IMG/VR virus record: IMGVR_UViG_3300030390_001226
Location: 1-62,744 of that record
DNA length: 62,744 bases
Source: a virus
Taxonomy: Duplodnaviria; Caudoviricetes
Reading direction: 5' to 3' (one strand)
Within the stretch, counting starts at the first letter, position 1, and every line of letters starts with the position of its first letter. The position numbers were made by a program, and so were the translations under genes. Under the pieces are notes generated by a model. That model was not told the DNA's origin. It saw only the letters and a list, made by a program, of their open reading frames with translations, and did not search any database. Of this stretch, positions 40,183-55,159 are shown in pieces.

Positions 40183-40839
40183 TTAGTATCCAGTTAATAA
40201 TTTAAGTACGTCATCAATAGCCTTATGTCTGTGGTTATCTTCTAGAATTACCTTGTATACATGTTTGCTATCTTTTATCTTATGTACATCATCTATAGCT
40301 GAGTTAAGTGGTGAACCTAAGTCTATCTGTTGGTTATCCCCACAGAATATCATTACAGAGCTTTTACCTAACCTACCTAAAGCCATTCTTAATTGTGGCT
40401 TAGTTAAGTTTTGAAACTCATCTATAATAACTACAGCGTTATCAAATGTCCTACCTCTAAAATGAGCAAGAGAAACTAACTCAACCTCCTCATTTTCTAC
40501 CATCTTCTGAATCTTATCAGGCTTATTATAAACCTTACGCATATTCGACATGATTGGTACAAGCCAAGGCTCTAACTTTTCCTTCTCGTCTCCAGGAAGA
40601 AATCCATTATCCTCTGTAGCTATAGTAGGTCTTGTAATGATAATCTTATTGTATTGTCTCTTAAAGAACATGTCCAAAGCTATCTGAACAGCTAGAAGCG
40701 TTTTACCAGATCCAGCCTTACCGACAATAAAGTTGAAGGCGTGATTTAGTATTTGCTCCTTAGCTATCTTTTGTTCTTCAGATAGGGTTATGTTAAACTT
40801 AACATTCCCTTTAGGTGGTTGCTTTTTCTTGTTATCCAT
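40183..40839 (-). CDS. phoH: PhoH-family ATPase
   Basis: GKAGSGKT, GFLPGD, FRGRTF, IIDEFQN, GDNQQID, NHRH; start set at MDNKK. Confidence 0.93.
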   Translation of the reverse strand: MDNKKKQPPKGNVKFNITLSEEQKIAKEQILNHAFNFIVGKAGSGKTLLAVQIALDMFFKRQYNKIIITRPTIATEDNGFLPGDEKEKLEPWLVPIMSNMRKVYNKPDKIQKMVENEEVELVSLAHFRGRTFDNAVVIIDEFQNLTKPQLRMALGRLGKSSVMIFCGDNQQIDLGSPLNSAIDDVHKIKDSKHVYKVILEDNHRHKAIDDVLKLLTGY

Positions 40840-40840
40840 A

Positions 40841-40999
40841 CTACGAACCACAAGCTTCACAATCCTCGTCATCTATGTTGCAAGCCTCAGGCTGATCTTT
40901 TTCTTCTAGATCTACTATCCAAGAATCTAAAGTATCTTGTCTTGATTCGTCTGCTCTTCTTGCTGAGTCTTTAATGAAATCGTCATCGAATTTGTTCAT
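40841..40999 (-). CDS. 52-aa acidic peptide ending in RNR-like CxxC tail (not in ORF track)
   Basis: MNKFDDDF...PEACNIDDEDCEACGS*, tightly coupled to both neighbours. Confidence 0.75.
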   Translation of the reverse strand: MNKFDDDFIKDSARRADESRQDTLDSWIVDLEEKDQPEACNIDDEDCEACGS

Positions 41000-41466
41000 G
41001 TTTTTTGTTTTTTAAAGGTTCCCCTGCTTAGTATGGATTCTATTGTTGCGTTAACTTCTTTTTGATTCGATGGGATGTATACGTCTAATTTTTGATCACT
41101 ATCATGTAGATACTTCAAAAACAATTTGAATCTCATACTAAACACTGGGGTTCTTAAACCTTTGGTTTCTATTATGAATCCAGCATCTAAGTTTATAAAG
41201 TCAGGTGTATAAGATATGTTCCTTACGTTACCAGTCATTTCCTTAAATACCTTTTTTCCTTTAGTAGTTCCCTTATCCATAAGGAGACCCTCGAACTTGA
41301 ATTTTTCTACAAGCTCGAAGGTCTTGCCCTCATACTCATGGGGGATTTCAGCTTTATTTAAGGCTCTATAGCAATACAACTCTAAGCCTGAGGCGAATGT
41401 AATTCCATCCTCAGTATGTTTCTTAGCGTTAGTTATCTGCTTACCTTTTCTTCTTTTGTATCGCAT
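40996..41466 (-). CDS. Endonuclease I-like / Holliday junction resolvase (PD-(D/E)xK)
   Basis: FASGLE...YE...YTPDF...IIETKG. Confidence 0.8.
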   Translation of the reverse strand: MRYKRRKGKQITNAKKHTEDGITFASGLELYCYRALNKAEIPHEYEGKTFELVEKFKFEGLLMDKGTTKGKKVFKEMTGNVRNISYTPDFINLDAGFIIETKGLRTPVFSMRFKLFLKYLHDSDQKLDVYIPSNQKEVNATIESILSRGTFKKQKT

Positions 41467-41486
41467 GATGGGAATTTACGAAATAA

Positions 41487-41759
41487 TTATTTCCTCCCTC
41501 TATTTCTAGCACGATTATTTTTCTGTGACTCTAAGACTGTACCTCCATCTTTAGTGTGAGATACATCTTTACCATCACCCTTCTTACCTTTCTTTCTATT
41601 GATAGCGTTAAGTCCTGCCCTGTATAGTTTCCTAGATAGACTAGCTCCATACTTAGCGTTGTACTTATCTTTTTTATCCTTAGCCTTAGGGTTGTTCTGG
41701 TAGTACTTAGCACTTTTGCTATCCCCTACCTTAGTTCCTGCTAACTTATTTCTAGCCAT
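41487..41759 (-). CDS. Basic protein with degenerate HNH-like motif
   Basis: GDGKDVSH...NRARN. Confidence 0.55.
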   Translation of the reverse strand: MARNKLAGTKVGDSKSAKYYQNNPKAKDKKDKYNAKYGASLSRKLYRAGLNAINRKKGKKGDGKDVSHTKDGGTVLESQKNNRARNRGRK

Positions 41760-41798
41760 GTTGCAATTATTTTATAAGTTGCAAGATACAAATTATTA

Positions 41799-42242
41799 TT
41801 AGAACTTAATTATAGTTAGTAGGTCTAGGTCTATGTAAAACAGAAGCTCTCTATCCCATATAGATCCTGGTCGGGGGTTCTTCATTCCTCCCCACTCAAC
41901 TGTAGCCTTAGTTATCTCGTGCATCCATATATAACCAATACCATCATTAAACCTCCAAGCTATACATAAAGGTAGATCTTTTTGTAAGGATTCTTTTTGG
42001 CAATGCTGTATCTTTCTAACAGAAGTTCTGACTCTTTTTATATCAGACATATTTAAGGACATAGTTTTTATCTCGCAAAGAGATACAATATCCATAGTTT
42101 TGTTGTTGATTATCTCAGCGTCTACTGGAGCATACCTACCTAACTGATTAAAGGTTAGGTCCTTACCTTCAAGGAGTATACGAAGAGTTTCCTCTTCCCT
42201 AACTCTATCAGATTCTTTCTCAAACTTAGGTTCTTTCTTCAT
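41799..42242 (-). CDS. PD-(D/E)xK nuclease-like protein
   Basis: PVD...LCEIK motif. Confidence 0.5.
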   Translation of the reverse strand: MKKEPKFEKESDRVREEETLRILLEGKDLTFNQLGRYAPVDAEIINNKTMDIVSLCEIKTMSLNMSDIKRVRTSVRKIQHCQKESLQKDLPLCIAWRFNDGIGYIWMHEITKATVEWGGMKNPRPGSIWDRELLFYIDLDLLTIIKF

Positions 42243-42537
42243 TTGATTTTTCTTTTACGTTATTATCAAACCCCCACTCAATGTTAGCATCCATGTCCTC
42301 CTTCATTATCTGAAGAAGTATTAGGTATCCAGTAAGGTCAAGTAAGTCGTTATCGCTTTGATATACTGTATTATTCTTAAGCCTGTTAAGTTTGTCGTTT
42401 ATCCTAGCTTGTATAGCGTATATAGGTTCAACATCAAACAGAACACCTCTCTCGAATACTGCATTGCCATAAGCCTCGTTTTTCTCTACTAAAAGATCTC
42501 TGATCTCATTGCATTTTTTTTTAATTTTCTCTTGCAT
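42226..42537 (-). CDS. DUF1599/Nmad1-like nucleotide-modification-associated helical protein
   Basis: KNEAYGN...RINDKLNRL...DLTGY. Confidence 0.75.
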   Translation of the reverse strand: MQEKIKKKCNEIRDLLVEKNEAYGNAVFERGVLFDVEPIYAIQARINDKLNRLKNNTVYQSDNDLLDLTGYLILLQIMKEDMDANIEWGFDNNVKEKSNEERT

Positions 42538-42733
42538 CTCTTTTCTTTAATTGTTTATATTCTTCTTTCTTTTTGCAAGCACAACTTCGCTTACAGATAT
42601 TCTGTACTTCATCCTCAGGAATCTCTGTAAAACCTTTAAGGTTATACCTTTCTTGATTGATATTCGGAGCATTCTTGAAATTATCCCAACCATCTTTAAT
42701 TAGTTTTATGATTAATGAAATATGTTGTATCAT
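42521..42733 (-). CDS. Hypothetical protein
   Basis: Overlap-coupled ORF. Confidence 0.5.
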   Translation of the reverse strand: MIQHISLIIKLIKDGWDNFKNAPNINQERYNLKGFTEIPEDEVQNICKRSCACKKKEEYKQLKKRDAREN

Positions 42734-42927
42734 CTTTTACCTCTTACTCTACCTCCTGGGCGTTTAATGATACCACCTAAGCCACCACCTTCTTCTTTAA
42801 TCGATTCCATAAACTCATCACAACATACAGCTTCTGGACAAACTACTTCACCATTCACTATCTTCATCGTGTGTTTCTGTATCTCTTTTATAGTGGAGTT
42901 ACACTTGTTGCATTTAAACTTTGCCAT
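42730..42927 (-). CDS. Small zinc-ribbon protein
   Basis: CNKC...C-x3-CC. Confidence 0.6.
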   Translation of the reverse strand: MAKFKCNKCNSTIKEIQKHTMKIVNGEVVCPEAVCCDEFMESIKEEGGGLGGIIKRPGGRVRGKR

Positions 42928-43013
42928 AATTTTTTATTTATCTCGATTAATAAATGGTTCTACTACTAAAATAATGCACAATATAGTTACGATTAAAATT
43001 ATTACGTTCTGTA

Positions 43014-43262
43014 TCATAGTGTTTCTTTTTCTTTGTTAATTTCTGCATCGATTATTACATCCCCCCAAGCGTATGCCTCTGAAGGAGTTTTAAATTGCTT
43101 AGAGTATTGCGTACTCCAGTTTCCTGTCTTAACACCTCTCTTATATAGTCCACAGATCCAACCGCTATCTTTTTCTGCCAATGGGCTTACTTGAATCCAC
43201 CAACCTATCTCTAGGTAAAAATTAATGTTCTCCATTACTCTTGTTTTAGTTATTGCCTCCAT
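43014..43262 (-). CDS. Hypothetical protein
   Basis: 82-aa ORF. Confidence 0.6.
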   Translation of the reverse strand: MEAITKTRVMENINFYLEIGWWIQVSPLAEKDSGWICGLYKRGVKTGNWSTQYSKQFKTPSEAYAWGDVIIDAEINKEKETL

Positions 43263-43603
43263 TCGTTCTTAGGTAATCTCTTAAACTTTGTAGTTATTCC
43301 AAAGTAAGTTACATCGCATTGAGCAACCTCTTGCCAGAACTTAGATTTAGTCATGTCCCACCATTGATTATGTAATCTGTCTTTAGATGGTATAGAAAAT
43401 AGTTTCTTTTCAGCTTCTTTAATTTCTTTCCAATCTGCTTCTGCTAGTAAGCGTTTCTTTTCTTTTGCTCCGTACCTATCTCTCTCATAAGTATACACCT
43501 TTGTTCTGTCTTCAGATGTAAACCCAAAGTGCAACTCAAACATAGTCTTACCATCTTTTAAGGTTTTAAATACGGTTTCCTTAGGATCTAGTGGGTGTGT
43601 CAT
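43250..43603 (-). CDS. Hypothetical protein
   Basis: 117-aa ORF. Confidence 0.6.
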   Translation of the reverse strand: MTHPLDPKETVFKTLKDGKTMFELHFGFTSEDRTKVYTYERDRYGAKEKKRLLAEADWKEIKEAEKKLFSIPSKDRLHNQWWDMTKSKFWQEVAQCDVTYFGITTKFKRLPKNEWRQ

Positions 43604-43625
43604 AAGTATATGCTTTACTTTAAGT

Positions 43626-43805
43626 TAGGTAATCCAGTAAGGTGCAGATCCCCTACACCTTACCTTCAAAACAAATTGAGAACCTGACCTCTCATCGCCT
43701 AAGTATTAGCATTACCTAGGACTTTTTATGCAGCACTCAAGTAGCTTACTCACTTAAAAAGAATTGCAACCGACTTGTTACATTTTAATAGGTAGATCGT
43801 ACCTA
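43626..43805 (-). ncRNA. Candidate structured RNA (multi-way junction plus hairpins)
   Basis: Nested stems 43626-33/43711-18, 43637-47/43653-63, 43677-81/43690-94, 43699-702/43706-09; G-U pairs favour - strand. Confidence 0.5.
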
Positions 43806-43809
43806 ATCT

Positions 43810-44076
43810 TTAAACTTGTTTATCAACGTTTTCACGAATCATATACACCATATCAGTAATAGAATCATTAAGATCCTCTATTACTTTTTGATTATCTTTT
43901 AACCACGTAGAGTCGATTTGTTTCTCGTAGTTGCTTACGTAGTTTTGTAGTAGGTTGAATTTCTTTTTTACTAAACCACTATGCAACCCTTTCATGTTGT
44001 GAAGTTGTTCGCTAAATGACTTGTAAGTACCTAGTAATAATAATAGGTCTATCTGTTGTTCTTTATTTAAATCCAT
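43810..44076 (-). CDS. Hypothetical protein
   Basis: 88-aa helical ORF. Confidence 0.6.
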   Translation of the reverse strand: MDLNKEQQIDLLLLLGTYKSFSEQLHNMKGLHSGLVKKKFNLLQNYVSNYEKQIDSTWLKDNQKVIEDLNDSITDMVYMIRENVDKQV

Positions 44077-44079
44077 ATC

Positions 44080-44343
44080 TTAGTAAACATCGTGTGACAT
44101 ACATAAAAACTTATGAACCACAACATCTGTTATTTTAATTTCTATACCTAGTTTAGCGTTATGAATATAACTTAAGGAATTGCAAAACCTTTCGTTTTTT
44201 TCTAACTTTAATGGTTCTATTTCTGTAACGCAGGTTGTGTGTTTGTCTTCGTTCCACTTCTTAGAAACCACCTCAATTCCTTTCTGCATTCTAAATGATC
44301 TCCACTTATAATGTACTGTGACATAGTGTATCTTTTTCCTCAT
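44080..44343 (-). CDS. Hypothetical protein
   Basis: 87-aa ORF. Confidence 0.55.
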   Translation of the reverse strand: MRKKIHYVTVHYKWRSFRMQKGIEVVSKKWNEDKHTTCVTEIEPLKLEKNERFCNSLSYIHNAKLGIEIKITDVVVHKFLCMSHDVY

Positions 44344-44851
44344 TGCTTAACTTTTCTTTAAGATTATGTACCTCATTCTTTAAACTTGAATTGATAACCT
44401 TTAGTGATGAAATGTCTCTCATTAATTTTTCCACCAACAACTCTCTCTCTTCTGTTAAAGAATTGTAATCAAATTTAACTTCGTTATAACTTCTTTTATA
44501 GTTATCAACCATCATGTTTAATTTTCTAATCAACTTTAAGTAGTTCTTATCATGAGATAAACAACCATCGTTAAGCTTCTGATAGTGAATTATAGTAGAG
44601 TAATGCTTACCTATAATCTTACCTATTAATACAACGGGAAAATTAAAATGCTTCCTAATGATATTTGATATAGCTGCGTTAGCTTCTACTAAATCTCTCT
44701 TTCTACTTCCTATGATTGAATGTAGTATATCTTTTTCTTTGTAAGTAAATTCAAACAAAGCTTTTATTATCTGCAGATCATCATCTTTAATATTTAATGA
44801 GTCAAGATGTTTAGTTGCTTTATTTAGTGCTAATTTTGTACCTTCTTTCAT
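44306..44851 (-). CDS. DnaA domain IV-like HTH protein with C-terminal coiled coil
   Basis: SRKRDLVEA...IGKIIGKHYSTIIH signature. Confidence 0.7.
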   Translation of the reverse strand: MKEGTKLALNKATKHLDSLNIKDDDLQIIKALFEFTYKEKDILHSIIGSRKRDLVEANAAISNIIRKHFNFPVVLIGKIIGKHYSTIIHYQKLNDGCLSHDKNYLKLIRKLNMMVDNYKRSYNEVKFDYNSLTEERELLVEKLMRDISSLKVINSSLKNEVHNLKEKLSNEEKDTLCHSTL

Positions 44852-44946
44852 GTCTTTTATTTTAAAATTTCGTAAATGATTTGTCTTGCAAATAAAAATA
44901 AAAAGTATAAACCACTAAGGGTTAATAATATTTCTGAAATCATACC

Positions 44947-46281
44947 TTAGAATGCTTGTGATGTTTCTACTCCTTGAACTGCTGAATAGTCGTTACCATA
45001 ATCTGCAGGGTCACTAAACCTAGTGTACTCCTTCTCAAATTTAAGGGGTAACACTCCAGTACCTATATTTCTACCTTTGGCAAAGATTAGGTCTACTAAA
45101 CCCTCTGTATTGTTTCCGTTATCATCCTGCATAATACCATAGTATTCTGGTCTATACACAAGCATAACAATATCTGATGCCTGCTCTATCTCTCCACTCT
45201 CTCTAAGATCAGATAGCATAGGTCTATTACCTCCACCCCTCTTCTCTACACTTCTACTAAGCTGAGATAATGCTACGATTGTTATGTTTAATTCCTTAGC
45301 TATATTCTTAAGTTCACGAGCAACCATAGCTACCTCCTGCTCTCTTGAGTGACCACTACCCTTTACTAATTGAAGGTAATCAACTAAGACAAACTTAACA
45401 CTCTTAGTTATAACGTACTGACGTATCTTATTCAGCAGGTATCTAAGTGAGGAATCCTTACACTCATCAACGTATAGTTCAGTTCTTTCTAGCTTACCTA
45501 TAGCAGTATCTACCCTAGCCAACTCATCGTTCTGTAGCGTACCCTTCATTATGTATCTGTTATTAACAGAACTTTCTAATGATACTAACCTCTGTAATAG
45601 TTGTGTCTCCCCCATCTCGTAAGAGAATACTGCTGATGGTATACCTGCCTTAGAGCAGTTGTAACAAAAGGCTAAACCTAAAGATGTCTTACCCATAGAG
45701 GATGCACCACCTATTACTATAAAGTCAGTCTCTTGCCAACCTCCAGTAAATTTATCTATTGATTGAAACCCAGTAGGCACACCAACCATTTCATCTGAGG
45801 ACATTCTTCTTTGTATGTCATCGTGTAGTACCTTTAGTTGTTTCTTTATGTCGGGAATATCGCTACCCCTAACCTCTGATATAGGCTTAAGTTCTGTCTC
45901 TACATAGTCTAGTACCTCAAACAAGTCATCATTCCTATTCAGCTTATTATTAGTTACCTCTATTAACTTTTTTAATCTGATCTTCTTCTCTTCTTGAGAT
46001 AAGAAAAGAATCATATGTTCTGTGTTGTAATGGCTAAAATCTAAAGAGTAACACTCAGCTAACCTATAAGGTGCTAGAGAGTCTTTAACTAGCTTAGTAA
46101 GTATAATTAAGTCTACCTTTTCCCCTAAGTCTAACCTATTTGATACTACCTTGTAAATCTTTCTATTAAGAGGGTCAGTAAACATTCCCTCAGACATAAG
46201 GCTGTGATTATTATAATACTCTTTTGGTATAGACATTATACGACCAAGCAACCTCATTTCCATGTCTTTATTATCTGTCAT
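44947..46281 (-). CDS. dnaB: Replicative DNA helicase
   Basis: GVPTGF, GASSMGKT, FSYEM, LVDYLQL, LSQLSR, DLRESGEIEQ, KGRN. Confidence 0.95.
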   Translation of the reverse strand: MTDNKDMEMRLLGRIMSIPKEYYNNHSLMSEGMFTDPLNRKIYKVVSNRLDLGEKVDLIILTKLVKDSLAPYRLAECYSLDFSHYNTEHMILFLSQEEKKIRLKKLIEVTNNKLNRNDDLFEVLDYVETELKPISEVRGSDIPDIKKQLKVLHDDIQRRMSSDEMVGVPTGFQSIDKFTGGWQETDFIVIGGASSMGKTSLGLAFCYNCSKAGIPSAVFSYEMGETQLLQRLVSLESSVNNRYIMKGTLQNDELARVDTAIGKLERTELYVDECKDSSLRYLLNKIRQYVITKSVKFVLVDYLQLVKGSGHSREQEVAMVARELKNIAKELNITIVALSQLSRSVEKRGGGNRPMLSDLRESGEIEQASDIVMLVYRPEYYGIMQDDNGNNTEGLVDLIFAKGRNIGTGVLPLKFEKEYTRFSDPADYGNDYSAVQGVETSQAF

Positions 46282-46774
46282 CAGTAACGTATTTTGGTTG
46301 TGTGTATCGGTTTAACTCTTTCTTATCATCACTAGATAATAATACTTCACTCTCCCATCCCTTTGAGTTTATCCAAGTTCTAGGGTTCTTTCTGTACTTC
46401 TTATCTGGAGTAGACTCTATGTAAGACTTAACACCCTTAATAGCTTTACCCATCTCCTCCAATGTAAGCCTCATAAAGGATATTCTAGCGTTCTTCTCGT
46501 CTATCCTCTTGTCGTACATAGACCAGAACATATCGAATCCCTTAGACCTTCTCTGATCTTCTTCCTTAGGACTTGTTTCGTTTAAGAACCTAGCGTCTGT
46601 TACCTTAAGATAGTGATTTATATTATTGAATGTAGTTTGTGACTCAAACTCATTATTGTATAGAGACTTATACACTTTTTCTTTAGAGTGGAATACTATA
46701 TACCTACCATCCATCTCTATAAAGTCAACGTTATCCGTATTGATTATGTCGTTATCTGATACTCTTAATCTCAT
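46271..46774 (-). CDS. Phage replication initiator/helicase-loader-like protein
   Basis: FDMFWSMY...KNPRTWIN..GWE motif, upstream of dnaB. Confidence 0.6.
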   Translation of the reverse strand: MRLRVSDNDIINTDNVDFIEMDGRYIVFHSKEKVYKSLYNNEFESQTTFNNINHYLKVTDARFLNETSPKEEDQRRSKGFDMFWSMYDKRIDEKNARISFMRLTLEEMGKAIKGVKSYIESTPDKKYRKNPRTWINSKGWESEVLLSSDDKKELNRYTQPKYVTDDR

Positions 46775-46793
46775 AGCTTTGGTTTGGTTTGGT

Positions 46794-46824
46794 AAAAAAA
46801 ATAGGGGAGGTGGTTTGCCTCCCC
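46794..46824 (-). terminator. Intrinsic terminator inside the replication operon
   Basis: GGGGAGG/CCTCCCC stem with A8 on + strand (U tract on -). Confidence 0.7.
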
Positions 46825-46838
46825 ATATAATCTATATA

Positions 46839-47111
46839 CTAGAACGGTAAATCATCGCTCTTTGCTGGTGCAGTAGAACCCTTTGGTTCTGGCTTAAAGG
46901 TATCAACCTCTACGTAGTGAGTCTTTCCGTACTCATCCTCTTCACGCTTCTTTACAACCTTTAACTTGATGTATTTATCTCCGTTGTAGTCGAACATAAA
47001 GTCACTAGCTTCTTTACCTAACTTGGTAAGGTTTAATGAAAAGTTAACCATTCCACCATCGAACTTCTCAGTTCCGTTTCCAATGTAAATTTTTTCTGTC
47101 TTGTTACTCAT
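46839..47111 (-). CDS. Putative single-stranded DNA-binding protein
   Basis: DEYGKTHYV motif, acidic DDLPF C-terminus, next to recombination genes. Confidence 0.6.
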   Translation of the reverse strand: MSNKTEKIYIGNGTEKFDGGMVNFSLNLTKLGKEASDFMFDYNGDKYIKLKVVKKREEDEYGKTHYVEVDTFKPEPKGSTAPAKSDDLPF

Positions 47112-47116
47112 AGCTT

Positions 47117-47314
47117 TTAGCTTTTAATAAAATAATTAATAAGTGCCTCTCTTTCTGTTATATCTAAATACTTTACGATCTTTTTGAAGTGTTTTATTTT
47201 AAACTCTTCGGGAGTGTCTAAGTATTTAAATAGGGTAGGTCGGCTTAACCCCATTCTTTCTGATAGAAACTGAACAGTTATCCCTTTTCTAAACAATTCA
47301 TCTCTTAATGTCAT
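47117..47314 (-). CDS. Cro/XRE-like HTH protein
   Basis: LSERMGLSRPTLFKY. Confidence 0.7.
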   Translation of the reverse strand: MTLRDELFRKGITVQFLSERMGLSRPTLFKYLDTPEEFKIKHFKKIVKYLDITEREALINYFIKS

Positions 47315-48078
47315 AGCGTGTCTGTTATTAAATGCTCCTCTACAACAGCCTCATTATCTATAAAGAATCTTCTATAGGTATCGAGTAGGTACTTATACTC
47401 ATCTCTACCCCTATCCATAAACTCTTTACCTGCATAAAATATAGACACGTTGTAGGGCATTGTTTTCTCTTGTGTTATGAAGATGAACTCGTCACATCCA
47501 AAACCATCTGAGTAAAATGCTGCCTGCCTATCGTAGCCATACTTTCTACATGAGCCTGAGAAACCATATAGACTCCCATCTCCAGTAGTCTTGAGGTCTA
47601 TAAGCGTTTTACCATTACGGTAATCTGCTTTACCCTTGCAGAACACACCAGTATCATCGTCTTGCCAAGCGTTAGCTATCTCTCTTTCGCCCTCTGCTAC
47701 CAGCAAATCCTTAACCTCTTTATGTGAGAACAACACATCCTGCATACGCATTATCTGGTCGTACTCTTTGGTTAATATGATAGTGGGTGCTTTAGAGTTC
47801 TCTGACTTAAACTCTTTGTATCCTTTAGTAGTCCTTGTAGCTGAGTCGAATACCTTAACCTTATCGTTAAACTCATTAGGTTCTAGCATTGCTACATGGT
47901 AAGCCCTCCCAAAGATCATTGGAAAGGTCTCCGTTCTTAAATGAGGGTTATCCCTCATAAGTTTGTAGGTACGTACATCCTTCTTTATCAACCCCAACTG
48001 CGAGTTCGTAACAAACTCGTAGTCGGAGTAATAGAAAGAGTCATCCTCTATCTTCTTTATAAAACTATCTAAACTCAC
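47311..48078 (-). CDS. RecE/exonuclease VIII-like PD-(D/E)xK exonuclease
   Basis: TNSQL, FGRAYH, KGKAD...IDLKT, YDRQAAFY. Confidence 0.85.
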   Translation of the reverse strand: MSLDSFIKKIEDDSFYYSDYEFVTNSQLGLIKKDVRTYKLMRDNPHLRTETFPMIFGRAYHVAMLEPNEFNDKVKVFDSATRTTKGYKEFKSENSKAPTIILTKEYDQIMRMQDVLFSHKEVKDLLVAEGEREIANAWQDDDTGVFCKGKADYRNGKTLIDLKTTGDGSLYGFSGSCRKYGYDRQAAFYSDGFGCDEFIFITQEKTMPYNVSIFYAGKEFMDRGRDEYKYLLDTYRRFFIDNEAVVEEHLITDTL

Positions 48079-48647
48079 TAAGCTAGTGTGTTAGCAACTT
48101 TTATAAATTTCCCTAGATTTTCTTCTTGAGATTTAGTAAGAGAATAACCACTCATTTTCTGCTGAACAACTGCACCTTTACCATCTTCTATAGCCTTAAC
48201 CATAGCTTTGTATTGGTCTGATGATAGCTTAGGTTTAGCACCTGCAACCTTCTTAACTATGGGTGCGTTACCTTTAACTGCTCCATTACCATCGTCATCT
48301 CCAGTAACTACACCAACAAATGATGCTAAAGCGTATCTTCTGGCGTAGGATATAGCTGAACCAACACCATGAGCATCTTCCTTAGATGGAATATACATGG
48401 TAGAGGATAGGTACTCGCCACTTGAATGTGATAGTATTGTTGTTAGCCCACCGACATCTGTAGGCATTTGAATAATTGATAGCTCATTTTCGGACAATAA
48501 TGCACGAACAGAATCCCATACTGAACCTAAGTCAGCATAGTTTGATTTGAAAAAAGGATTCTTTGAGTTTTCTTTAGCAGGTCGTAATTGAGCCTGTACT
48601 TTTGATAGGGCAAGGGTTAGATTCCCAATGCTTTCTGACTTTTCCAT
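48078..48647 (-). CDS. ERF-family ssDNA annealing protein
   Basis: NPFFKSNYADL, HSSGE, GSAISYARRYAL, DDDG. Confidence 0.92.
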   Translation of the reverse strand: MEKSESIGNLTLALSKVQAQLRPAKENSKNPFFKSNYADLGSVWDSVRALLSENELSIIQMPTDVGGLTTILSHSSGEYLSSTMYIPSKEDAHGVGSAISYARRYALASFVGVVTGDDDGNGAVKGNAPIVKKVAGAKPKLSSDQYKAMVKAIEDGKGAVVQQKMSGYSLTKSQEENLGKFIKVANTLA

Positions 48648-48679
48648 AGTTTTGGTTTGATTAAATTAACTTTCTGTTG

Positions 48680-48687
48680 CAAATATA
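48680..48687 (-). promoter_or_regulatory. Bacteroidota -7 element
   Basis: TATATTTG on - strand upstream of ERF gene. Confidence 0.6.
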
Positions 48688-48728
48688 GTGAACTTTTTTT
48701 ACTCCTGAAACGTTTTTAGTAAAAATAT

Positions 48729-49097
48729 TTAACTAAATCCTATAATTTCGTAATTTAAATTAGCAGGAAATATGTCTTTTATGATGTTCTGTACTGACAT
48801 TAAATGTTCTTGTGCTTGAAGTTCATCTTCGGTATTGTAGAACGAAATGATAGTGATGCCATCAAATTTTGGAGAGAGTATACACTCATTTAAATCTAGG
48901 TACTTATCCTTACAAGAACCTAGTATTATAATGTTTTCTGTCTCGTGAAAATAATTGTACTTAATTTTATGCTTGTTAAATGTTTTTATCAACATTTTAA
49001 TGTAAGGGTGCTTAATGGGTGTTATCCTCTTGTCTAACTTTACTTTTATACCCACGCCTCTTAGCATTGATTCTATTGCGTTCGTCTCGTATTCCAT
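48729..49097 (-). CDS. Hypothetical protein
   Basis: 122-aa ORF. Confidence 0.55.
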   Translation of the reverse strand: MEYETNAIESMLRGVGIKVKLDKRITPIKHPYIKMLIKTFNKHKIKYNYFHETENIIILGSCKDKYLDLNECILSPKFDGITIISFYNTEDELQAQEHLMSVQNIIKDIFPANLNYEIIGFS

Positions 49098-49395
49098 TTA
49101 TCTTGCGTATAAAACTAGTTAGTGTACAGTTGCTCTCCAGTAAGTAATTTAAATGCTTCAACTCGAGTTTTTCTACTGAGTTCAAAAGGTAACGTATTTT
49201 AAGTTTACATTTGTAGGGTGTCATCTTAAATTGTTTGCTACCAGACATTTTCTTGGATAAATCATTCATACTTTCAATTATAGGTACTACGTACTTACTT
49301 CTTATCTTTGAGTATTTAACGTATGATTGGCAGGGGTCTTGCTCCCCATCCATCCATATCTGGTCTACATCAATTGTCTTTACTTGATTCTGCAT
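49012..49395 (-). CDS. Hypothetical protein
   Basis: Start set at MQNQVK. Confidence 0.5.
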   Translation of the reverse strand: MQNQVKTIDVDQIWMDGEQDPCQSYVKYSKIRSKYVVPIIESMNDLSKKMSGSKQFKMTPYKCKLKIRYLLNSVEKLELKHLNYLLESNCTLTSFIRKINGIRDERNRINAKRRGYKSKVRQEDNTH

Positions 49396-49537
49396 CTTTA
49401 ATTTGTTTAAGTTCTTCTTCGGCTGTTTCTGATTCGTTCTGTAGAGCATCTATACACTCCATCAATTCCTTTACCCTATTCTCTAGGGCTTGTATCCTTA
49501 AGAGGTTATACTCTTCTTGTTGCTCGTCTCTACTCAT
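49370..49537 (-). CDS. 55-aa coiled-coil protein (not in ORF track)
   Basis: MSRDEQQEEYNLLRIQALENRVKEL...; conserved CTAGAAATTATG leader. Confidence 0.6.
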   Translation of the reverse strand: MSRDEQQEEYNLLRIQALENRVKELMECIDALQNESETAEEELKQIKDAESSKDN

Positions 49538-49542
49538 AATTT

Positions 49543-49728
49543 CTAGTTGGTTATTTCGTCTATTGCTTTAATTAAATTGATTCTTAAGAGTTTCCACGCT
49601 CCATCGCAATCAAAGTCTAGACCCTCGTTTTCTCTTGCTAGGTTTATTAGCATATGAATTTCTTTTGTTATCTCCATAACTTCTAATGATAGTGTAGCTG
49701 AGTATGATTCTAATTGATCTAATGTCAT
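49543..49728 (-). CDS. Hypothetical early protein
   Basis: Start set at MTLDQ by conserved leader. Confidence 0.55.
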   Translation of the reverse strand: MTLDQLESYSATLSLEVMEITKEIHMLINLARENEGLDFDCDGAWKLLRINLIKAIDEITN

Positions 49729-49892
49729 AGTCTTAGTTGTTTTGGTTTTTAGGTTTAACGTCTTTAGTCTTAAGGATAGTGAATTGATGTTCCTCATCCT
49801 CTAATCTTCTGTCGTGTTTAATCTTAGGTAGTAAATCCTCGTTAAAGGTGTTTAGGTAGTCCTCACCCATCTGGATGAATAATTCTTTTAAG

Positions 49893-50114
49893 TTATTCAT
49901 AGTACTGCTCATTTTGGTTAATAATGGTTTGCTCTAACTCATCTATAGCATCTGTGCTTAGGTAGTCATATATAAAGTCTGTAATGTCCACTGCGTTCAT
50001 AGATGTCTTGCAGTGGTACATTAAGGATTCTAATTCGAAGTGTTCTCTTGATACGTGAGCGTGTGCTACTACCTCGTAGGTCTCACTCTCTTTGATTGTC
50101 TGTGTGATATTCAT
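49893..50114 (-). CDS. Hypothetical early protein
   Basis: 73 aa; AAACCAAAACACTATG leader. Confidence 0.6.
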   Translation of the reverse strand: MNITQTIKESETYEVVAHAHVSREHFELESLMYHCKTSMNAVDITDFIYDYLSTDAIDELEQTIINQNEQYYE

Positions 50115-50122
50115 AGTGTTTT

Positions 50123-50152
50123 GGTTTATCGGTTTATCGGTTTATCGGTTTA
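50123..50152. repeat. Tandem 8-mer (GGTTTATC) x3.75
   Basis: Direct reading. Confidence 0.9.
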
Positions 50153-50313
50153 AGGGTGTATATATACCCTTTGCAAACCGATGGAATCCTTCCTTTAGCA
50201 AATTGTTGCATCATCTGTAGGTTAGCCTTGAATAGCTTGATGCATCTGTCTATTTGTTTATCTGTTCCGTTCTGTCCGTTGTACTGGCAGATTTGTTTAG
50301 CTAGGTCTCTCAT
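50134..50313 (-). CDS. 59-aa hypothetical protein (not in ORF track)
   Basis: MRDLAKQICQYNGQNG...; conserved leader and promoter directly upstream. Confidence 0.6.
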   Translation of the reverse strand: MRDLAKQICQYNGQNGTDKQIDRCIKLFKANLQMMQQFAKGRIPSVCKGYIYTLKPINR

Positions 50314-50337
50314 AGTGTTTTGGTTTGGTTTAGACTA

Positions 50338-50369
50338 CAAACATAGTAAACTTATTTTACTTTACCAAA
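50338..50369 (-). promoter_or_regulatory. Bacteroidota-type promoter
   Basis: TTTG-N20-TATGTTTG on - strand. Confidence 0.75.
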
Positions 50370-50494
50370 TAAATTTACATCTATATAAAAATAACACTTG
50401 ATTATGTCATTTATTTCGTGTAACTTCGTAAAATATAATATTAAGTATAACAAATACCCTTACCTCCCTTTAAAAAATCTTAAAAGAATCAGTC

Positions 50495-50609
50495 CAAGTG
50501 AGGTTCAGTTAAGCCAATGGAGCATTATAAGGGCTTGGCGCAACGTAAGCGAGCTTCTTGTTACCCAACCAATCACTTGTACCCTTTTATGTATTAAGCC
50601 CATATTATG
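50495..50609 (-). ncRNA. Candidate pseudoknotted RNA
   Basis: Interleaved inverted repeats 50495-501/50573-79 and 50523-36/50596-609. Confidence 0.35.
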
Positions 50610-50622
50610 TTCTGTAAGTTCA

Positions 50623-50826
50623 TTAATAAAACAAGGACATACAAGTCTTGTAAGCCTCAGGGTTCTTATCTACCCTCTTAAACGTACTCGCAATAGGATT
50701 CAAGGTATTGCTATCCTTGTATTCTTTTAATGCTTTAGTAATAGCACCACGCTTAGTCTTAGCGTATACGGTGTTCCATCCTCCACCCTCGAAGTTGAAC
50801 ATAAATTCTTTTAATGGTAATTCCAT
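50623..50826 (-). CDS. Hypothetical early protein
   Basis: 67 aa with conserved leader. Confidence 0.6.
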   Translation of the reverse strand: MELPLKEFMFNFEGGGWNTVYAKTKRGAITKALKEYKDSNTLNPIASTFKRVDKNPEAYKTCMSLFY

Positions 50827-50845
50827 AATGATAGTGTGTTTTGGT

Positions 50846-51106
50846 TTAACAATATATTTCTGGAGGTATACTCTCTTGTAGTATACGTATCTGCTTAATG
50901 TGTCGCATATATTTTAAGCAGACCTCATACTCTTTTATCAATCCTTCCCAATCTTCATCTTCTTCGTATATGTCCATAGCATCAGACGAACCTTGTGCTT
51001 GACACCACATAGAATCGTTATAGTCATACCCACTATACTCAGTATAGATGTCCCATATTTCGTTGTACATCTCTTGTGCTAATTCTTTTGCTTTTCCTTT
51101 ATTCAT
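50846..51106 (-). CDS. Hypothetical acidic early protein
   Basis: 86 aa with conserved leader. Confidence 0.6.
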   Translation of the reverse strand: MNKGKAKELAQEMYNEIWDIYTEYSGYDYNDSMWCQAQGSSDAMDIYEEDEDWEGLIKEYEVCLKYMRHIKQIRILQESIPPEIYC

Positions 51107-51123
51107 GATGGTAGTGTTTTTTG

Positions 51124-51363
51124 TTAGTAATAGTATAGTTGAAATTGCTCTTTCAAAGCTCTGCCCTCTCTAGTATTGAAACCATAGCTATGTGTGTACA
51201 TACCCTCTATTGGTTCATTCTCTACCATAAAGAGGAATACTTCTTTTGGGGTTGCTTCGTGTCGCTTTGATACTTCCTTACAAGCATACTCCATTTTATC
51301 AATATCGTGTACTACCTTACCATAGTTATCCATAAGGTATTTGTGCATTTGTTTTGCTTTCAT
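51124..51363 (-). CDS. Hypothetical early protein
   Basis: 79 aa. Confidence 0.6.
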   Translation of the reverse strand: MKAKQMHKYLMDNYGKVVHDIDKMEYACKEVSKRHEATPKEVFLFMVENEPIEGMYTHSYGFNTREGRALKEQFQLYYY

Positions 51364-51686
51364 AGTTATTTAATTTTGTATTCATCATAGGTTAAACAAT
51401 AGTGTACACTATTAGGTTGTAGGTCTAATAGGTGTTTACAACAATCCATATAAGAACCTTTGTGTAAGATTTCTTCGTTGTAGTATAGAGTGTATGTTTT
51501 ATCCATAGTTTATAAGGGTTAGGTTAATTATTGGAAACATAATGTAAGGAATATTCTAGCAAGGTATTGTACCCTGCAAATTCTACTAGTAATTCAGATC
51601 GTATTAATGATAGTGAAATTTCTACCACCTCATCTTGAGGCAGTAGTATTTCCGTATGGTTGGTTAGGTATTGTTGTCGCATAGTC

Positions 51687-51998
51687 TTAGTCTTCTAATT
51701 CAATTAATTTTCCGTTTACTTCTTTGTATTGTAAGTCATCCTCACATTCCCACTCAGTCCAATAGTAGTAGTCTGCTTTGTAGTAGTCTTCAATTAGCCA
51801 ATCATCCGTTAGCCTACCCTCTGATACATCTTTATCATACTCAAGGTTACCCTTTTTCTCTACCTCTCTAAGATGCTTAATCATATCCTTCTCGTACTTT
51901 ATGTACATTAGTCCATCTTCTATGCAGTATCCCTCATTCATTCCCTCACCAGTAATATCGCATTGTCTGGCGTATAGTATTTCTTCTTGCTTTGTCAT
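51687..51998 (-). CDS. Hypothetical early protein
   Basis: ARQCDITGEGMNEGY...YYWTEWE. Confidence 0.65.
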   Translation of the reverse strand: MTKQEEILYARQCDITGEGMNEGYCIEDGLMYIKYEKDMIKHLREVEKKGNLEYDKDVSEGRLTDDWLIEDYYKADYYYWTEWECEDDLQYKEVNGKLIELED

Positions 51999-52019
51999 AA
52001 TTTTGTAATTTGATAGTGA

Positions 52020-52370
52020 TTAATTAATTCCCCAACCTTGTCCATAAGTACCACATTCTTCTTGTGGTCTAGCATCCTCTTTTGATACTATCTCCCAAGA
52101 GCATTTACCCTCTACGCTATCTGCAAATGAATACTCCCCATCCTTGTACTCTTCTAGGGTAGTATAAACATAGCTACCATAAGACTCAACTCCATCGCAG
52201 TCTTGAGAGTAGGTGTTTACATATATAGCACCATCCTCTGCAAGTGCTTTGTATACCTTGTGGTGTTGTGTAGATTGGCTTAAGGCTTTAAGTCGAGCCT
52301 TTAACTTAGCAATCTCTAAGTCTTTCTCCTTTAGTACTTCAAGAACGAAATCTTTTTCTTCTGTATTCAT
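52020..52370 (-). CDS. Hypothetical early protein
   Basis: 116 aa, DCDG motif. Confidence 0.6.
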   Translation of the reverse strand: MNTEEKDFVLEVLKEKDLEIAKLKARLKALSQSTQHHKVYKALAEDGAIYVNTYSQDCDGVESYGSYVYTTLEEYKDGEYSFADSVEGKCSWEIVSKEDARPQEECGTYGQGWGIN

Positions 52371-52382
52371 AATTTCTAAATT

Positions 52383-52616
52383 TTAGTTACATCTATCTAA
52401 GTAGTCATCGTGTATACCCAAGTCAACCTCCTGCTGGTGTTCGCATTCAGTCTCCCATTCTTGCTCTTCTATATATGGTATGGTTTTCTCTAAGACATCG
52501 TTAAATGAATCTAAAGTCCTTCTTAGATATTCGGAATTTATGTAAACTCCGTTAAACTCCTTATTTTCCTTTAACTTTCTAAGTAAAAAGGTTAATTCTT
52601 TTAAGTCATCAATCAT
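52383..52616 (-). CDS. Hypothetical early protein
   Basis: 77 aa with conserved leader. Confidence 0.6.
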   Translation of the reverse strand: MIDDLKELTFLLRKLKENKEFNGVYINSEYLRRTLDSFNDVLEKTIPYIEEQEWETECEHQQEVDLGIHDDYLDRCN

Positions 52617-52621
52617 AATTT

Positions 52622-52828
52622 CTAGCTTTCCTTGTTAAGTTCTTCCTTTGTCTTGATGGCATGGAGTAGTCTCCAATGCTCATCTTTAGTACCAAATATG
52701 TTGATGTAGTCGATAAGTTCTTGAGACGATGATAGAGAATTAATATCTTCGTTCCATACCTTGTTAAGGTTTAGTGGCATACGTACCATCTTAGATTGTA
52801 GGTAGCCTATTGTAATGTGTTGTCCCAT
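52622..52828 (-). CDS. Hypothetical early protein
   Basis: 68 aa with conserved leader. Confidence 0.6.
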   Translation of the reverse strand: MGQHITIGYLQSKMVRMPLNLNKVWNEDINSLSSSQELIDYINIFGTKDEHWRLLHAIKTKEELNKES

Positions 52829-52841
52829 AATTTCTATGTGT

Positions 52842-53024
52842 TTATCTTAGTTCTTGCCACGATTGATTCATATCCCCATAAATATCTCTTACATCTCTTA
52901 AATCTAAAGACCTTAACCAAGCTATGGCTTGCGAGTTAGTATCGCAATCAAAATCCTTTAACTTAAAGTTCGGTAGATTAATAATTTTTAAAGCTAATAG
53001 ATGCTTGTTTTCAAATACATTCAT
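52842..53024 (-). CDS. Hypothetical early protein
   Basis: 60 aa with conserved leader. Confidence 0.6.
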   Translation of the reverse strand: MNVFENKHLLALKIINLPNFKLKDFDCDTNSQAIAWLRSLDLRDVRDIYGDMNQSWQELR

Positions 53025-53033
53025 AATTTCTAG

Positions 53034-53204
53034 TTATTTAGTTAGTGTTTCATTGTAGTAGTCAGCACAAGCCATCGTTAGCTTTAATGCTTTTGAATCT
53101 GTTACATCGTAGACCATCTTAAAGATGGTAGCTACCTGTAATGCACTGCTCATCCCCGATTCAATGCATCTAGCGAATGTAATTCTGTGTTTTGTCGTAA
53201 TCAT
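53034..53204 (-). CDS. 56-aa early protein (not in ORF track)
   Basis: MITTKHRITF...; conserved leader. Confidence 0.55.
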   Translation of the reverse strand: MITTKHRITFARCIESGMSSALQVATIFKMVYDVTDSKALKLTMACADYYNETLTK

Positions 53205-53221
53205 AATGATAGTGTTTAGGT

Positions 53222-53395
53222 TTATCTTGTTCTGAATAGTAATCTCTCTTGTCTTTTTGAGTAACTATTGTCATTGTAGTTAGCTATCTTTCTCATCTTA
53301 GCTTCTGATAATATTCTACTGAATTGTTCAGCCTTATCATCATTATAATCGTAAGCCTTTTTTCTAAGGTTATGTACTAATCTTTCGTAATTCAT
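53222..53395 (-). CDS. 57-aa early protein (not in ORF track)
   Basis: MNYERLVHNL...; conserved leader. Confidence 0.55.
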   Translation of the reverse strand: MNYERLVHNLRKKAYDYNDDKAEQFSRILSEAKMRKIANYNDNSYSKRQERLLFRTR

Positions 53396-53408
53396 ATTTT
53401 CTAGTTGT

Positions 53409-53567
53409 TTAGTTTTCCTCTTCTAGGTGTAGTGCTATAAGGACTATGATAGGTAAGTCCATTAAGGTTATTAGAGCCTTAATCTCTATGCTGTCTGATG
53501 TAGTGTATACTATAGCCGTTAATGTTACGGCTAGTATAGTGATAATCGTTAAGATAAATTTATTCAT
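53409..53567 (-). CDS. 52-aa two-TM membrane protein
   Basis: Start set at MNKFILTII by conserved leader; two hydrophobic helices. Confidence 0.6.
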   Translation of the reverse strand: MNKFILTIITILAVTLTAIVYTTSDSIEIKALITLMDLPIIVLIALHLEEEN

Positions 53568-53592
53568 AGTTTCTAGTTGTTTAGTTTGACTA

Positions 53593-53754
53593 TTATTCTT
53601 CCTCCCAAAACTCAGCATCTCCATACACTCCAATGCTTTGCATATTACCTAGCATTGTTTCTGTCATAGCTTGTGTTTTTTCATTGGTCATCTCTTCCAC
53701 AGATAATGCTAATGCAGTTGCGATAATCTCTAGTTGTTTCTTGTTGAATCTCAT
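53593..53754 (-). CDS. 53-aa first early protein (not in ORF track)
   Basis: MRFNKKQLEI...FWEEE; directly downstream of the ribozyme. Confidence 0.6.
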   Translation of the reverse strand: MRFNKKQLEIIATALALSVEEMTNEKTQAMTETMLGNMQSIGVYGDAEFWEEE

Positions 53755-53780
53755 AATCTTAGTTGTTTAGGTTAATGTAT

Positions 53781-53833
53781 CCTTCTACTCAGCTTTTATG
53801 CAGACTTGTAACTGCCTTAGGTAGCTTTAAAGG
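53781..53833 (-). ncRNA. Twister ribozyme, type P1
   Basis: CCUU-UAA-AGCU-ACC-UAAG-GCAG-UUACAAGU-CUGC-AUAAA-AGCU-GAGUAG-AAGG: P1, P2, P4 and both pseudoknots (AC/GU, UAC/GUA) present. Confidence 0.85.
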
Positions 53834-54217
53834 GTTAAGATAAGGTAGGCTCAAGCACCACCTAATTAAGCCACAGCGTGTAGCCCTCATCTTAACATCC
53901 CATCGAATCAATAGGTACTGCCTACCATTGCAGTATTAAAGTCCTTAGAAGGACTGCCTTAATTTCTGTATCCTCTTACTAATTTGGTGTTGGTAAACGT
54001 CCTGTCGATTGAGTAGCTTATCGTATGCTACAGATTGCCAATAGATTCTAATGCCTTATAAGTGAACGAATATCTTAACACTTACCACAAGGTGGATAAC
54101 CTTGTCCCTCTGTTGAGTTTGGGCAATAGAGCCGTACAAAGCCGACTGCTGAATTTTGCGAATACCTCTTCCAATATGTCAATGAACGAGCAGTTAGGTG
54201 GATTACCTCATCTGCCC
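53829..54217 (-). ncRNA. Long structured leader RNA upstream of the twister cleavage site
   Basis: At least seven hairpins, no ORF of 60 aa or more, G-U pairs favour - strand. Confidence 0.55.
54172..54187 (-). promoter_or_regulatory. boxA-like antitermination element
   Basis: GTTCATTGACATATTG directly after the first transcript hairpin; resembles rrn boxA (GYTCTTT core). Confidence 0.55.
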
Positions 54218-54219
54218 TG

Positions 54220-54249
54220 CAAATAACGTAAAAGTTTTTTACTTACCAA
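54220..54249 (-). promoter_or_regulatory. Putative early promoter
   Basis: TTGGtaagtaaaaaacttttacGTTATTTG, similar to the 50338-50369 promoter; -7 element imperfect. Confidence 0.5.
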
Positions 54250-54505
54250 CTATAAAAAGTAAACTATTTTTACTTTATTTTTAAGATTGTACTGATACCA
54301 AGGGCTTCAGAGGGTAAAAAATGTTGGCTGTATAAGTGTATAGGCTGTGGGTAAGGGATTGATTGGGGGTAATTACTCCACCTCTCTCTACACCTCTTGC
54401 TACCAGAGGGATTGTACGATCTTTCTTTTATGGTGTATTGATACCACAATAGGTACATGATGCATTAGAAGGGCTAATATGTAGCTTTACTGGAGTGGTA
54501 TGTAT

Positions 54506-54575
54506 ATACTATTCATTGCATTGCAATTGCCTGCTCAACAATACTATTCATTGCATTGTATTTACCTGCTCAAGA
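54506..54575. repeat. Tandem 35-bp repeat x2 (31/35 identical)
   Basis: ATACTATTCATTGCATTG..T.CCTGCTCAA.A at 54506 and 54541. Confidence 0.9.
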
Positions 54576-54805
54576 TAATATTAGGTACTGCATACAATTA
54601 AATACACATAGATAGTAGGTAGTAGTCGGTGCATAACATAAATAGTAAATCGACATTTGAAATGCACGCATTGGATTTTGGTTTGGGTACACCCTTTGCA
54701 GATTTCGGTTTCGGTATAGGAAACACGCACGCAGATTAAATATATAACCCCCACCCCTTTCACACCTCACAAAAAATTTTTACCTTGCAAAAAAAATAGA
54801 GTAGT

Positions 54806-55159
54806 ATGTCTAAAATTAAAAAAGCAAAAAAGGGTTCTTCTTTAGAAAACATTTCTAAGTACGGTGGAAAGAAGGTAGTTTCTGGTGCAGAAAAGCGCAA
54901 CACTATAGGTGGTATGTCTAATTACAGACAGAATAAAATATCTAAACGAAATGACGTTTTAGCTGAAAGGCAAATAGGCAAGGCTAAGGGTTCTGAGAAA
55001 AGAATGTCTAAAAAGTTAGGTCGTGAAATAACTTCAGGTGAGCGTAAAGGTATATTAAGATCCTCTAACTCTTCTAACTCAAGAACTTCAAACGCTTTAA
55101 ATAAGGGTAGTAAGTTTGGGAATATGCTTAGATCTATAAACCCGTTTAAAAGAAGATAA
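54806..55159 (+). CDS. Lys/Arg-rich protein
   Basis: 117 aa, KKAKKG motif. Confidence 0.6.
   Translation: MSKIKKAKKGSSLENISKYGGKKVVSGAEKRNTIGGMSNYRQNKISKRNDVLAERQIGKAKGSEKRMSKKLGREITSGERKGILRSSNSSNSRTSNALNKGSKFGNMLRSINPFKRR

Follow-up and report, generated by a model that had tools for sequence, protein, structure and literature searches.

Twister ribozymes are chemically well understood, and their architecture has been described by Gebetsberger and Micura. As set out in that description (PMC5408937), helices P1, P2 and P4 are essential and P0, P3 and P5 are optional, with P3 present in 78% of twister members; pseudoknot T1 consists of three Watson-Crick pairs between L4 and L1, T2 connects L4 with a GC of L2, and the cleavage site of the family is defined together with its adenine. 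In the accounts of PMC6765202 and PMC8782182, bacterial and prophage twisters and hammerheads lie near phage genes in clustered, intercistronic arrangements and are proposed to process mRNA, with their function given as unknown, and PMC6765202 describes the biological role of bacterial and phage twisters in the same terms. Our literature search turned up no phage twister with a demonstrated function. The lineage described here may already be listed in the supplements of the discovery papers. The glmS ribozyme, as described in the sources consulted, is a self-cleaving RNA in an mRNA leader whose cut depends on a metabolite cofactor, decides the fate of the downstream message and leads to its decay. 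In RiboJ-type synthetic insulators, a ribozyme placed between a promoter or leader and a gene cuts away the variable 5' portion, so that the message begins with a structured 5'-OH end. Although twisters near phage genes are on record, the present locus has an informative context, namely a single copy, a position at the head of an operon, presence or absence among relatives, and a possible swap.

The locus lies in a complete virus record of 62,744 bp with direct terminal repeats (100% complete), which was analysed as a whole and which we call the window. The source is an uncultured marine podophage for which the host call is weak; the capsid protein's only cultured relatives are marine Flavobacteriia podophages at 26-30% identity, and judged from those capsid matches the host group is probably Flavobacteriia. 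Our main reading, to which we assign a probability of roughly 0.6, is that the locus contains a minimal type-P1 twister in the leader of a leftward host-takeover and replication operon, and that this ribozyme would uncouple the mRNA from its leader. The parts of the element are these:

53781..53833, minus strand: P3-less type-P1 twister core of 53 nt, from the full-length RF03160 match, covariation and conservation
53833-53830 with 53784-53781, minus strand: P1, CCUU/AAGG, 4 bp
53829/53828, minus strand: scissile U-A, followed by A53827 and aligned to the UAA of the model in junction J1-2
53826-53823 with 53794-53791, minus strand: P2, AGCU/AGCU, 4 bp
53822-53820, minus strand: ACC
53819-53816, minus strand: UAAG linker
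53815-53812 with 53803-53800, minus strand: P4, GCAG/CUGC, with loop UUACAAGU
53799-53795, minus strand: AUAAA
53790-53785, minus strand: GAGUAG
A53822-U53804 and C53821-G53805, minus strand: pseudoknot T2, AC/GU
U53810-A53786, A53809-U53787 and C53808-G53788, minus strand: pseudoknot T1, UAC/GUA

All of the twister features described in PMC5408937 are found in this element, including the helices, T1, T2 and the cleavage-site adenine. P1 is just 4 bp long with G53785 left unpaired, P4 in the Rfam alignment comprises three model pairs plus a G-C extension, and the conserved L1 and L4 letters (UAA, the L4 AAG, UAAA and GAG) are all there. The original prediction had named P1, P2, ACC, P4, AUAAA and GAGUAG, each of which is present and correct to the base, and had omitted only the UAAG linker from its list; its two pseudoknots, AC-GU and UAC-GUA, pair fully at the window positions, and the cut that it placed about 75 nt before the first AUG lies 74 nt from the ATG at 53754.

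In comparison with type-P1 twister (RF03160), the window element shares the P1-P2-P4 arrangement, the double pseudoknot T1/T2, the U-A site in J1-2, the L1 and L4 letters and termini in P1. It differs in lacking P3, the helix held by 78% of members according to PMC5408937, and its T1 and T2 read UAC/GUA and AC/GU where the consensus has CCC/GGG and GC/GC. The minimal crystallised rice twister is likewise a type-P1 form without P3 and P5, a likeness drawn from its description in PMC5408937 and not from its sequence, although that ribozyme is eukaryotic and of unknown context in that source whereas the one in the window follows a structured domain and heads a phage operon. The window twister is nearest to the minimal P3-less type-P1 form. 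Unlike the clustered, intercistronic ribozymes of bacteria and prophages as they are described, the twister in this lineage is a single copy behind a 540-970-nt leader at an operon head. With glmS it shares a predicted place as a self-cleaving RNA in an mRNA leader, although its fold is unrelated to that of glmS and neither a cofactor site nor a switch is seen in it, and its likeness to the engineered, hammerhead-based RiboJ is at most functional.

The covariance model RF03160 (twister-P1) aligns with Infernal over all 68 model positions to exactly 53781-53833 on the minus strand, with a score of 41.8 bits and E values of 4.6e-8 on 351 nt and 8.3e-6 on the whole window with both strands and 4227 Rfam families. 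One further Rfam match in the window reaches E ≤1, and it is unrelated (E 0.31). Lower-scoring matches from the same clan are suppressed beneath the P1-type model, so that the termini in P1 fit the permutation type. A default Rfam scan of the window at the gathering threshold nevertheless returns no entries because 41.8 bits falls under the gathering score of 67.2 bits. The original prediction had proposed a cmsearch with this model as a check and the lack of a hit as a refutation; a full-length match is there, and none is present at the curated threshold.

The shortfall of 25 bits has two sources, deletion of the P3 hairpin and a change in eight consensus letters. Every mismatched conserved consensus letter is half of a compensated pair in P4, T1 or T2. 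Relative to the RF03160 consensus, one P4 pair changes from G-C to A-U, T2 changes from G-C to A-U at A53822-U53804, and T1 changes from C-G to U-A (U53810-A53786) and from C-G to A-U (A53809-U53787). Other viral twisters mostly fall short of the gathering score as well. A pattern scan of a viral-contig collection gave at least 118 stretches and at least 64 distinct hits with P2, P4, T1 and T2 pairing; among the matches listed, all 48 other viral twister records match RF03160 at E ≤0.01, and only one of them exceeds 67.2 bits, the best match lying below that score in 47/48. Twister hits in the relatives of this phage (n=10) range from 39.5 to 44.9 bits, all under the gathering score. The gathering score is a very strict curation threshold and not a structural feature, and the shortfall in the window poses no problem for twister identity. 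Several phage or provirus records in the collection carry many twisters (G090, G077, G060 and G062), with up to seven matches in one viral record and four in another of just 7 kb; within such multi-copy records they are mostly a few hundred nucleotides apart.

We aligned the window element with 44 distinct P3-less viral twisters from the matches listed (n=45), requiring the fixed pattern letters, a 43-nt core and 4/4 P2 pairs. Sequences with fewer than 4/4 P2 pairs, with a core other than 43 nt, in exact duplicate or too near a locus end were left out, as was L189, which has no P4 pairing. The search pattern fixed TTAA, CC, CAAGY, TAAA and GAG, so that those letters and P2 are not independent evidence; pairs were counted in P2, P4, T1, T2 and the C-G that replaces P3, and T1 and T2 had not been selected for. 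Across the 45 sequences, 99.7% of 630 cells pair, as against 74.0% when shuffled and 17-34% when the partners are slid, and the covariation score is 0.686 against 0.166 for shuffled alignments. Pairing is 100% in P2, which was a selection criterion, and 99.4% of cells in P4. T1 is paired at all three positions in 45/45 and two of the positions covary, the first being UA in 20, CG in 16 and GC in 9, and the second AU in 33, GC in 7, CG in 4 and GU in 1; the first position of T2 is GC in 26 and AU in 19, and is broken in 0/45.

Conservation was also examined within the phage's own lineage. The viral collection holds 277 ERF relatives of the window, of which 80 were fetched, and 13 distinct twister-bearing sequences were recovered in the lineage, the window included. 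Among these 13 the mean pairwise identity is 92% over the 53-nt core, as against 30% and 50% respectively in the segments that precede and follow it, and blastn similarity to four of them (L006, L042, L061 and L068) starts within 2 nt of the ribozyme 5' end. L044 carries compensatory changes in P2, P4 and T1, L061 one in P1, and L047 a G-U intermediate in T1. The twister is present in 10/50 related records and in 3/7 near-complete relatives, 4/7 being without it, and it is dispensable in the lineage; in three relatives that lack it (L028, L070 and L039) the search revealed no Rfam family at E ≤1 and no other known ribozyme. The type-P1 assignment of the original prediction is borne out by the full-length match, the compensated pseudoknots and the covariation of P1, P2, P4, T1 and T2 in relatives. 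By every structural criterion testable at the sequence level the element is a genuine member of the twister class, and we consider it very probably an active one. The identity of the fold, its evolutionary conservation and its position can all be read from the alignments and coordinates.

A rightward gene set and a leftward operon are separated by about 1050 nt (53755-54805), and the ribozyme lies in this interval. The operon is made up as follows:

40183..53754, minus strand: leftward operon, with about 20 small ORFs followed by replication and recombination genes
53593..53754, minus strand: first ORF of the operon, 53 aa, with its ATG 26 nt after the ribozyme and no family match
48078-48647, minus strand: ERF, within the operon
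47311-48078, minus strand: PDDEXK exonuclease-like protein, within the operon
44947-46281, minus strand: DnaB helicase, within the operon

The operon-head position that had been proposed is confirmed, with the twister 26 nt before the first ORF of this leftward operon of small ORFs, ERF, exonuclease and DnaB. We infer that the operon is early from its gene content. The first ORF of the relatives differs from that of the window, and it starts within 60 nt of the twister in 9/11. No ORF of at least 40 aa is present on the minus strand in the leader upstream of a 40-aa TTG frame at 53789-53911, which itself overlaps the twister. The 1-kb region had no counterpart among cultured phages in a blastn search, and no tRNA was found in a scan of the window. 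Elsewhere in the genome, a small rightward gene set divergent from the leader ends with an HNH endonuclease (55934-56323, plus strand; phrog_23251, E 1.3e-31), and two giant ORFs on the plus strand (17145-26657 and 29117-39694, 3170 and 3525 aa) have partial matches to 'virion structural protein' PHROGs only.

Upstream of the twister, the following features were recognised:

54153..54182, minus strand: sigma-70-like promoter candidate TTGACA-N18-CAAAAT, from a consensus scan and block conservation
53829..54146, minus strand: leader RNA, the predicted 5' cleavage product of about 318 nt, with predicted ends
53834..53901, minus strand: Y-shaped structured domain directly 5' of P1, from RNAalifold
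53899..53911, minus strand: conserved motif UUGAUUCGAUGGG, with 80% mean identity in 13 relatives, the 5' strand of a possible closing helix
53772..53777, minus strand: CAUUAA, what would remain in the window of the 3' strand of that helix, where the pairing lacks significance

The predicted start of the promoter candidate is at about 54146, some 318 nt before the cut. The candidate falls within a block at 54141-54188 on the minus strand (GTTCATTGACATA ... TTCGCAAAATTCAGCAGTCGGC) without any variation among the window, L014, L047 and L208; the sequences on both sides differ, those after the block diverging, and the block looks like the boundary of a recombination module. Similarity to L014, to L047 and to one RNA-library contig begins in all cases at 54187-54188. 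The promoter scan finds two sites as against 5.1 in shuffles, and since this gives no enrichment, the promoter call is drawn from conservation of the block and not from the scan. Flavobacteriia use a promoter consensus different from the sigma-70 type, and the Bacteroidota -7 motif is TAnnTTTG. This motif has 84 matches in the window against 74.7 expected and none within 52005-55111, a segment that includes the leader, and the scan lends support neither for nor against a promoter in the leader.

Several other features of the region deserve mention. There is a terminator-like hairpin at 53935-53916. In the divergent intergenic region two tandem 33-nt repeats (54506-54573) are 91% alike with a spacing of 35. 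A further pair, of 20-nt repeats, occupies 54225-54275. These repeats could be protein-binding sites. Six relatives (L006, L042, L044, L061, L065 and L068) have an H-type-pseudoknot-like sequence about 60-110 nt before their twisters, in which a hairpin loop UGUGUGUU is complementary to AACACACA just downstream and both stems vary among relatives; the surrounding block, some 390 nt long with 82-92% conservation across those six, is absent from the window.

The original prediction envisaged an upstream RNA freed by cleavage, and the sequence upstream of the cut does correspond to a conserved, partly structured leader. The Y-shaped domain has 18 predicted pairs, nine of them with compensatory changes (RNAalifold, seven relatives), and varies in length from 19 to 78 nt among relatives with its inner sequence conserved; other relatives have a simple 19-22-nt hairpin or a different insert in its place. 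It matches no Rfam family. The domain may be the P0 of the twister literature, a stem named as optional in PMC5408937, and a literature search for 'stem P0' returned nothing. A closing helix around both domain and twister is possible as a lead only. Relatives have longer complements to the closing-helix motif (CAUUAAUCAA, CAAAUCAA and CUAUCAAUCAA), and a three-way junction enclosing hairpin and twister is predicted in nine of 12 minimum free energy folds, a set that includes the window, whose own fold is without it. The duplex energies beat 95% of shuffles in only four of 13 sequences and that of the window is worse than the mean shuffle, such that the modelled helix is weak and is unsupported in the window itself.

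These observations can be assembled into a proposal for what the cut would do. Transcription would start at the conserved promoter candidate near 54182-54153, and a leader of about 318 nt ending in the covarying Y-shaped domain would be transcribed. Once the 53-nt core is made the RNA would cut itself between U53829 and A53828, releasing the leader with a 2',3'-cyclic phosphate, and the operon mRNA would start 74 nt ahead of its first AUG, its 5'-OH enclosed by the compact twister fold. The consequence would be a fixed, structured mRNA 5' end that is independent of the upstream sequence, together with a separate leader RNA. The promoter, the cut in vivo and all that would follow from it are inferred. 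In our estimate there is somewhat less than an even chance that selection acts on the parting of the mRNA, with its 5' end thereby defined, from the leader. The original prediction went further in describing the ribozyme as gating the early operon, a term that we do not retain, as no sensor, switch, alternative fold or sign of ligand control was found in the element. Its further suggestion, that a 5'-OH end shields the mRNA from decay, likewise gains no support from our results.

The alternative that survives best is that the ribozyme mainly makes the 3' end of the leader RNA, with the leader acting as a functional non-coding RNA (the Y-shaped domain plus the 2',3'-cyclic phosphate) and any effects on the mRNA being incidental. 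RNA-library data are relevant here. Contigs from three metatranscriptome runs in two studies match 53903-54187, 53896-54108 and 53983-54144 at 95-99% identity; within the 1-kb stretch they are confined to the leader (53896-54187), leaving the ribozyme and ORFs uncovered, which speaks for this alternative. One of the contigs terminates at 54144, 2 nt away from where transcription is predicted to begin, another (X18) continues for 183 unlike letters beyond 54187, and a further run (X21) had no contig placed on the region. The window and L014 also share 85.7% identity over the leader, covariation is seen in the Y-shaped domain immediately 5' of the cut, and L038 retains this domain with another element standing in place of its twister. 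However, contig ends are not RNA ends and cannot show cleavage either way, and the signal may reflect either an abundant phage non-coding RNA or DNA carry-over in the libraries. The two nearest contigs reach no further than 53896-53903, where the variable domain starts, which leaves some 70 nt between them and the cut. The fold of the whole leader shows no unusual stability (z -1.08), and relatives have unrelated leaders before the same twister. We regard a leader-centred role as unlikely, and continue to favor uncoupling of the mRNA from its leader.

A second alternative is that cleavage lowers expression, with a 5'-OH mRNA that decays faster, so that the ribozyme would limit early-gene expression or cut it short. 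Instead of protecting an RNA, a 5'-OH end can target it for decay, as with glmS and RNase J1. The dispensability of the twister in relatives is compatible with such a role, and in the account of PMC6765202 glmS, the only well-understood bacterial case, works by cleavage followed by RNase degradation. However, neither a sensor domain nor an alternative fold was found in the element, and the 3' product would keep the compact ribozyme fold at its 5' end, which reviews, as far as consulted, describe as burying that end. The strong conservation of twisters immediately ahead of a start codon, both in this lineage and in 27/48 others among the matches listed, fits a positive role at least equally. 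A decay-promoting role is improbable on this evidence.

It is also conceivable that the twister is a generic intercistronic processing site, placed behind a long leader by accident through loss of upstream genes. PMC6765202, as presented there, proposes such a role for bacterial hammerheads and twisters, and among the matches listed many phage records carry several twisters, up to seven. The context counts, which use crude ORFs of at least 60 aa and not gene calls, place 62/64 viral twisters outside any same-strand ORF among the matches listed, and outside the lineage 36/48 lie within 60 nt after a same-strand ORF and 27/48 within 60 nt before the start of the next one. The lineage itself departs from this pattern, with none of the seven members that have enough sequence showing an upstream same-strand ORF within 60 nt; the nearest is 542-968 nt away in 7/7. 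The leader of the window is without a minus-strand ORF of at least 40 aa upstream of the TTG frame that overlaps the twister, and a conserved promoter-like block lies between the upstream genes and the twister. An accidental intercistronic origin is thus very improbable for this lineage. The feature that viral twisters appear to share is a predicted cut shortly before a start codon, which would leave a folded ribozyme on the downstream message, and the position at an operon head behind a long leader appears particular to this lineage; with most other viral twisters lying between genes inside operons, the operon-head reading may not be general. Finally, chance resemblance or a dead relic, to which the score under the Rfam cut-off might point, is close to refuted already by the E value on the whole window, the compensatory changes in every helix and both pseudoknots, and a core that is an island of conservation.

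The relatives without a twister raise a further possibility for the site before the first gene. L038 has the same upstream motif and Y-shaped domain, followed by a tRNA-like element of about 155 nt in place of the twister. A perfect T arm and an acceptor-like 3' strand with discriminator A close this element, and some 20 nt separate it from the first start codon. The element is located as follows:

L038:2020-2180 and L059:415-535, and also in L214, L215 and L216: tRNA-like element of 115-160 nt

It has the T arm GGTTCGATTCC and discriminator A and is without CCA. The putative acceptor-stem pairing changes on both strands between copies, as read by eye and not counted. Against the tRNA model the L038 element scores just 15.9 bits (E 3), and no tRNA was found in it by ARAGORN. 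Nine stretches share the tRNA-like pattern, of which L212 is L038 again, L059, L214, L215 and L216 carry the element, and L209, L210, L211 and L213 are other contexts. In the four further carriers the element also precedes a start codon, at a site not demonstrably homologous to that of the twister. This arrangement suggests that different cleavage modules may occupy the same slot before the operon. We tentatively propose, as a doubtful reading, that the site is a swappable slot for RNA 'punctuation', filled by a twister or, in at least one sister (L038), by a tRNA-like element that host RNase P or RNase Z would cut. Selection would then act on the cut itself, through which an abundant leader RNA would be set free and the 5' end of the mRNA fixed.

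These findings bear on viral twisters in general, in that the Rfam gathering score hides nearly all of them (47/48 records among the matches listed), which constitutes an annotation gap. The lineage also offers a test case, in which a single-copy twister heads an operon between a leader with its candidate promoter and a start codon, and in which close relatives have no twister or a different RNA module at the site. It is abundant in marine metagenomes (277 ERF-encoding relatives), making the role of the cut approachable. The chemistry of twisters is well understood, and their role in bacteria and phages, given as unknown in the sources consulted, is what this lineage could address. If the slot reading is true, the lineage would be a natural experiment on the purpose of bacterial and phage twisters.
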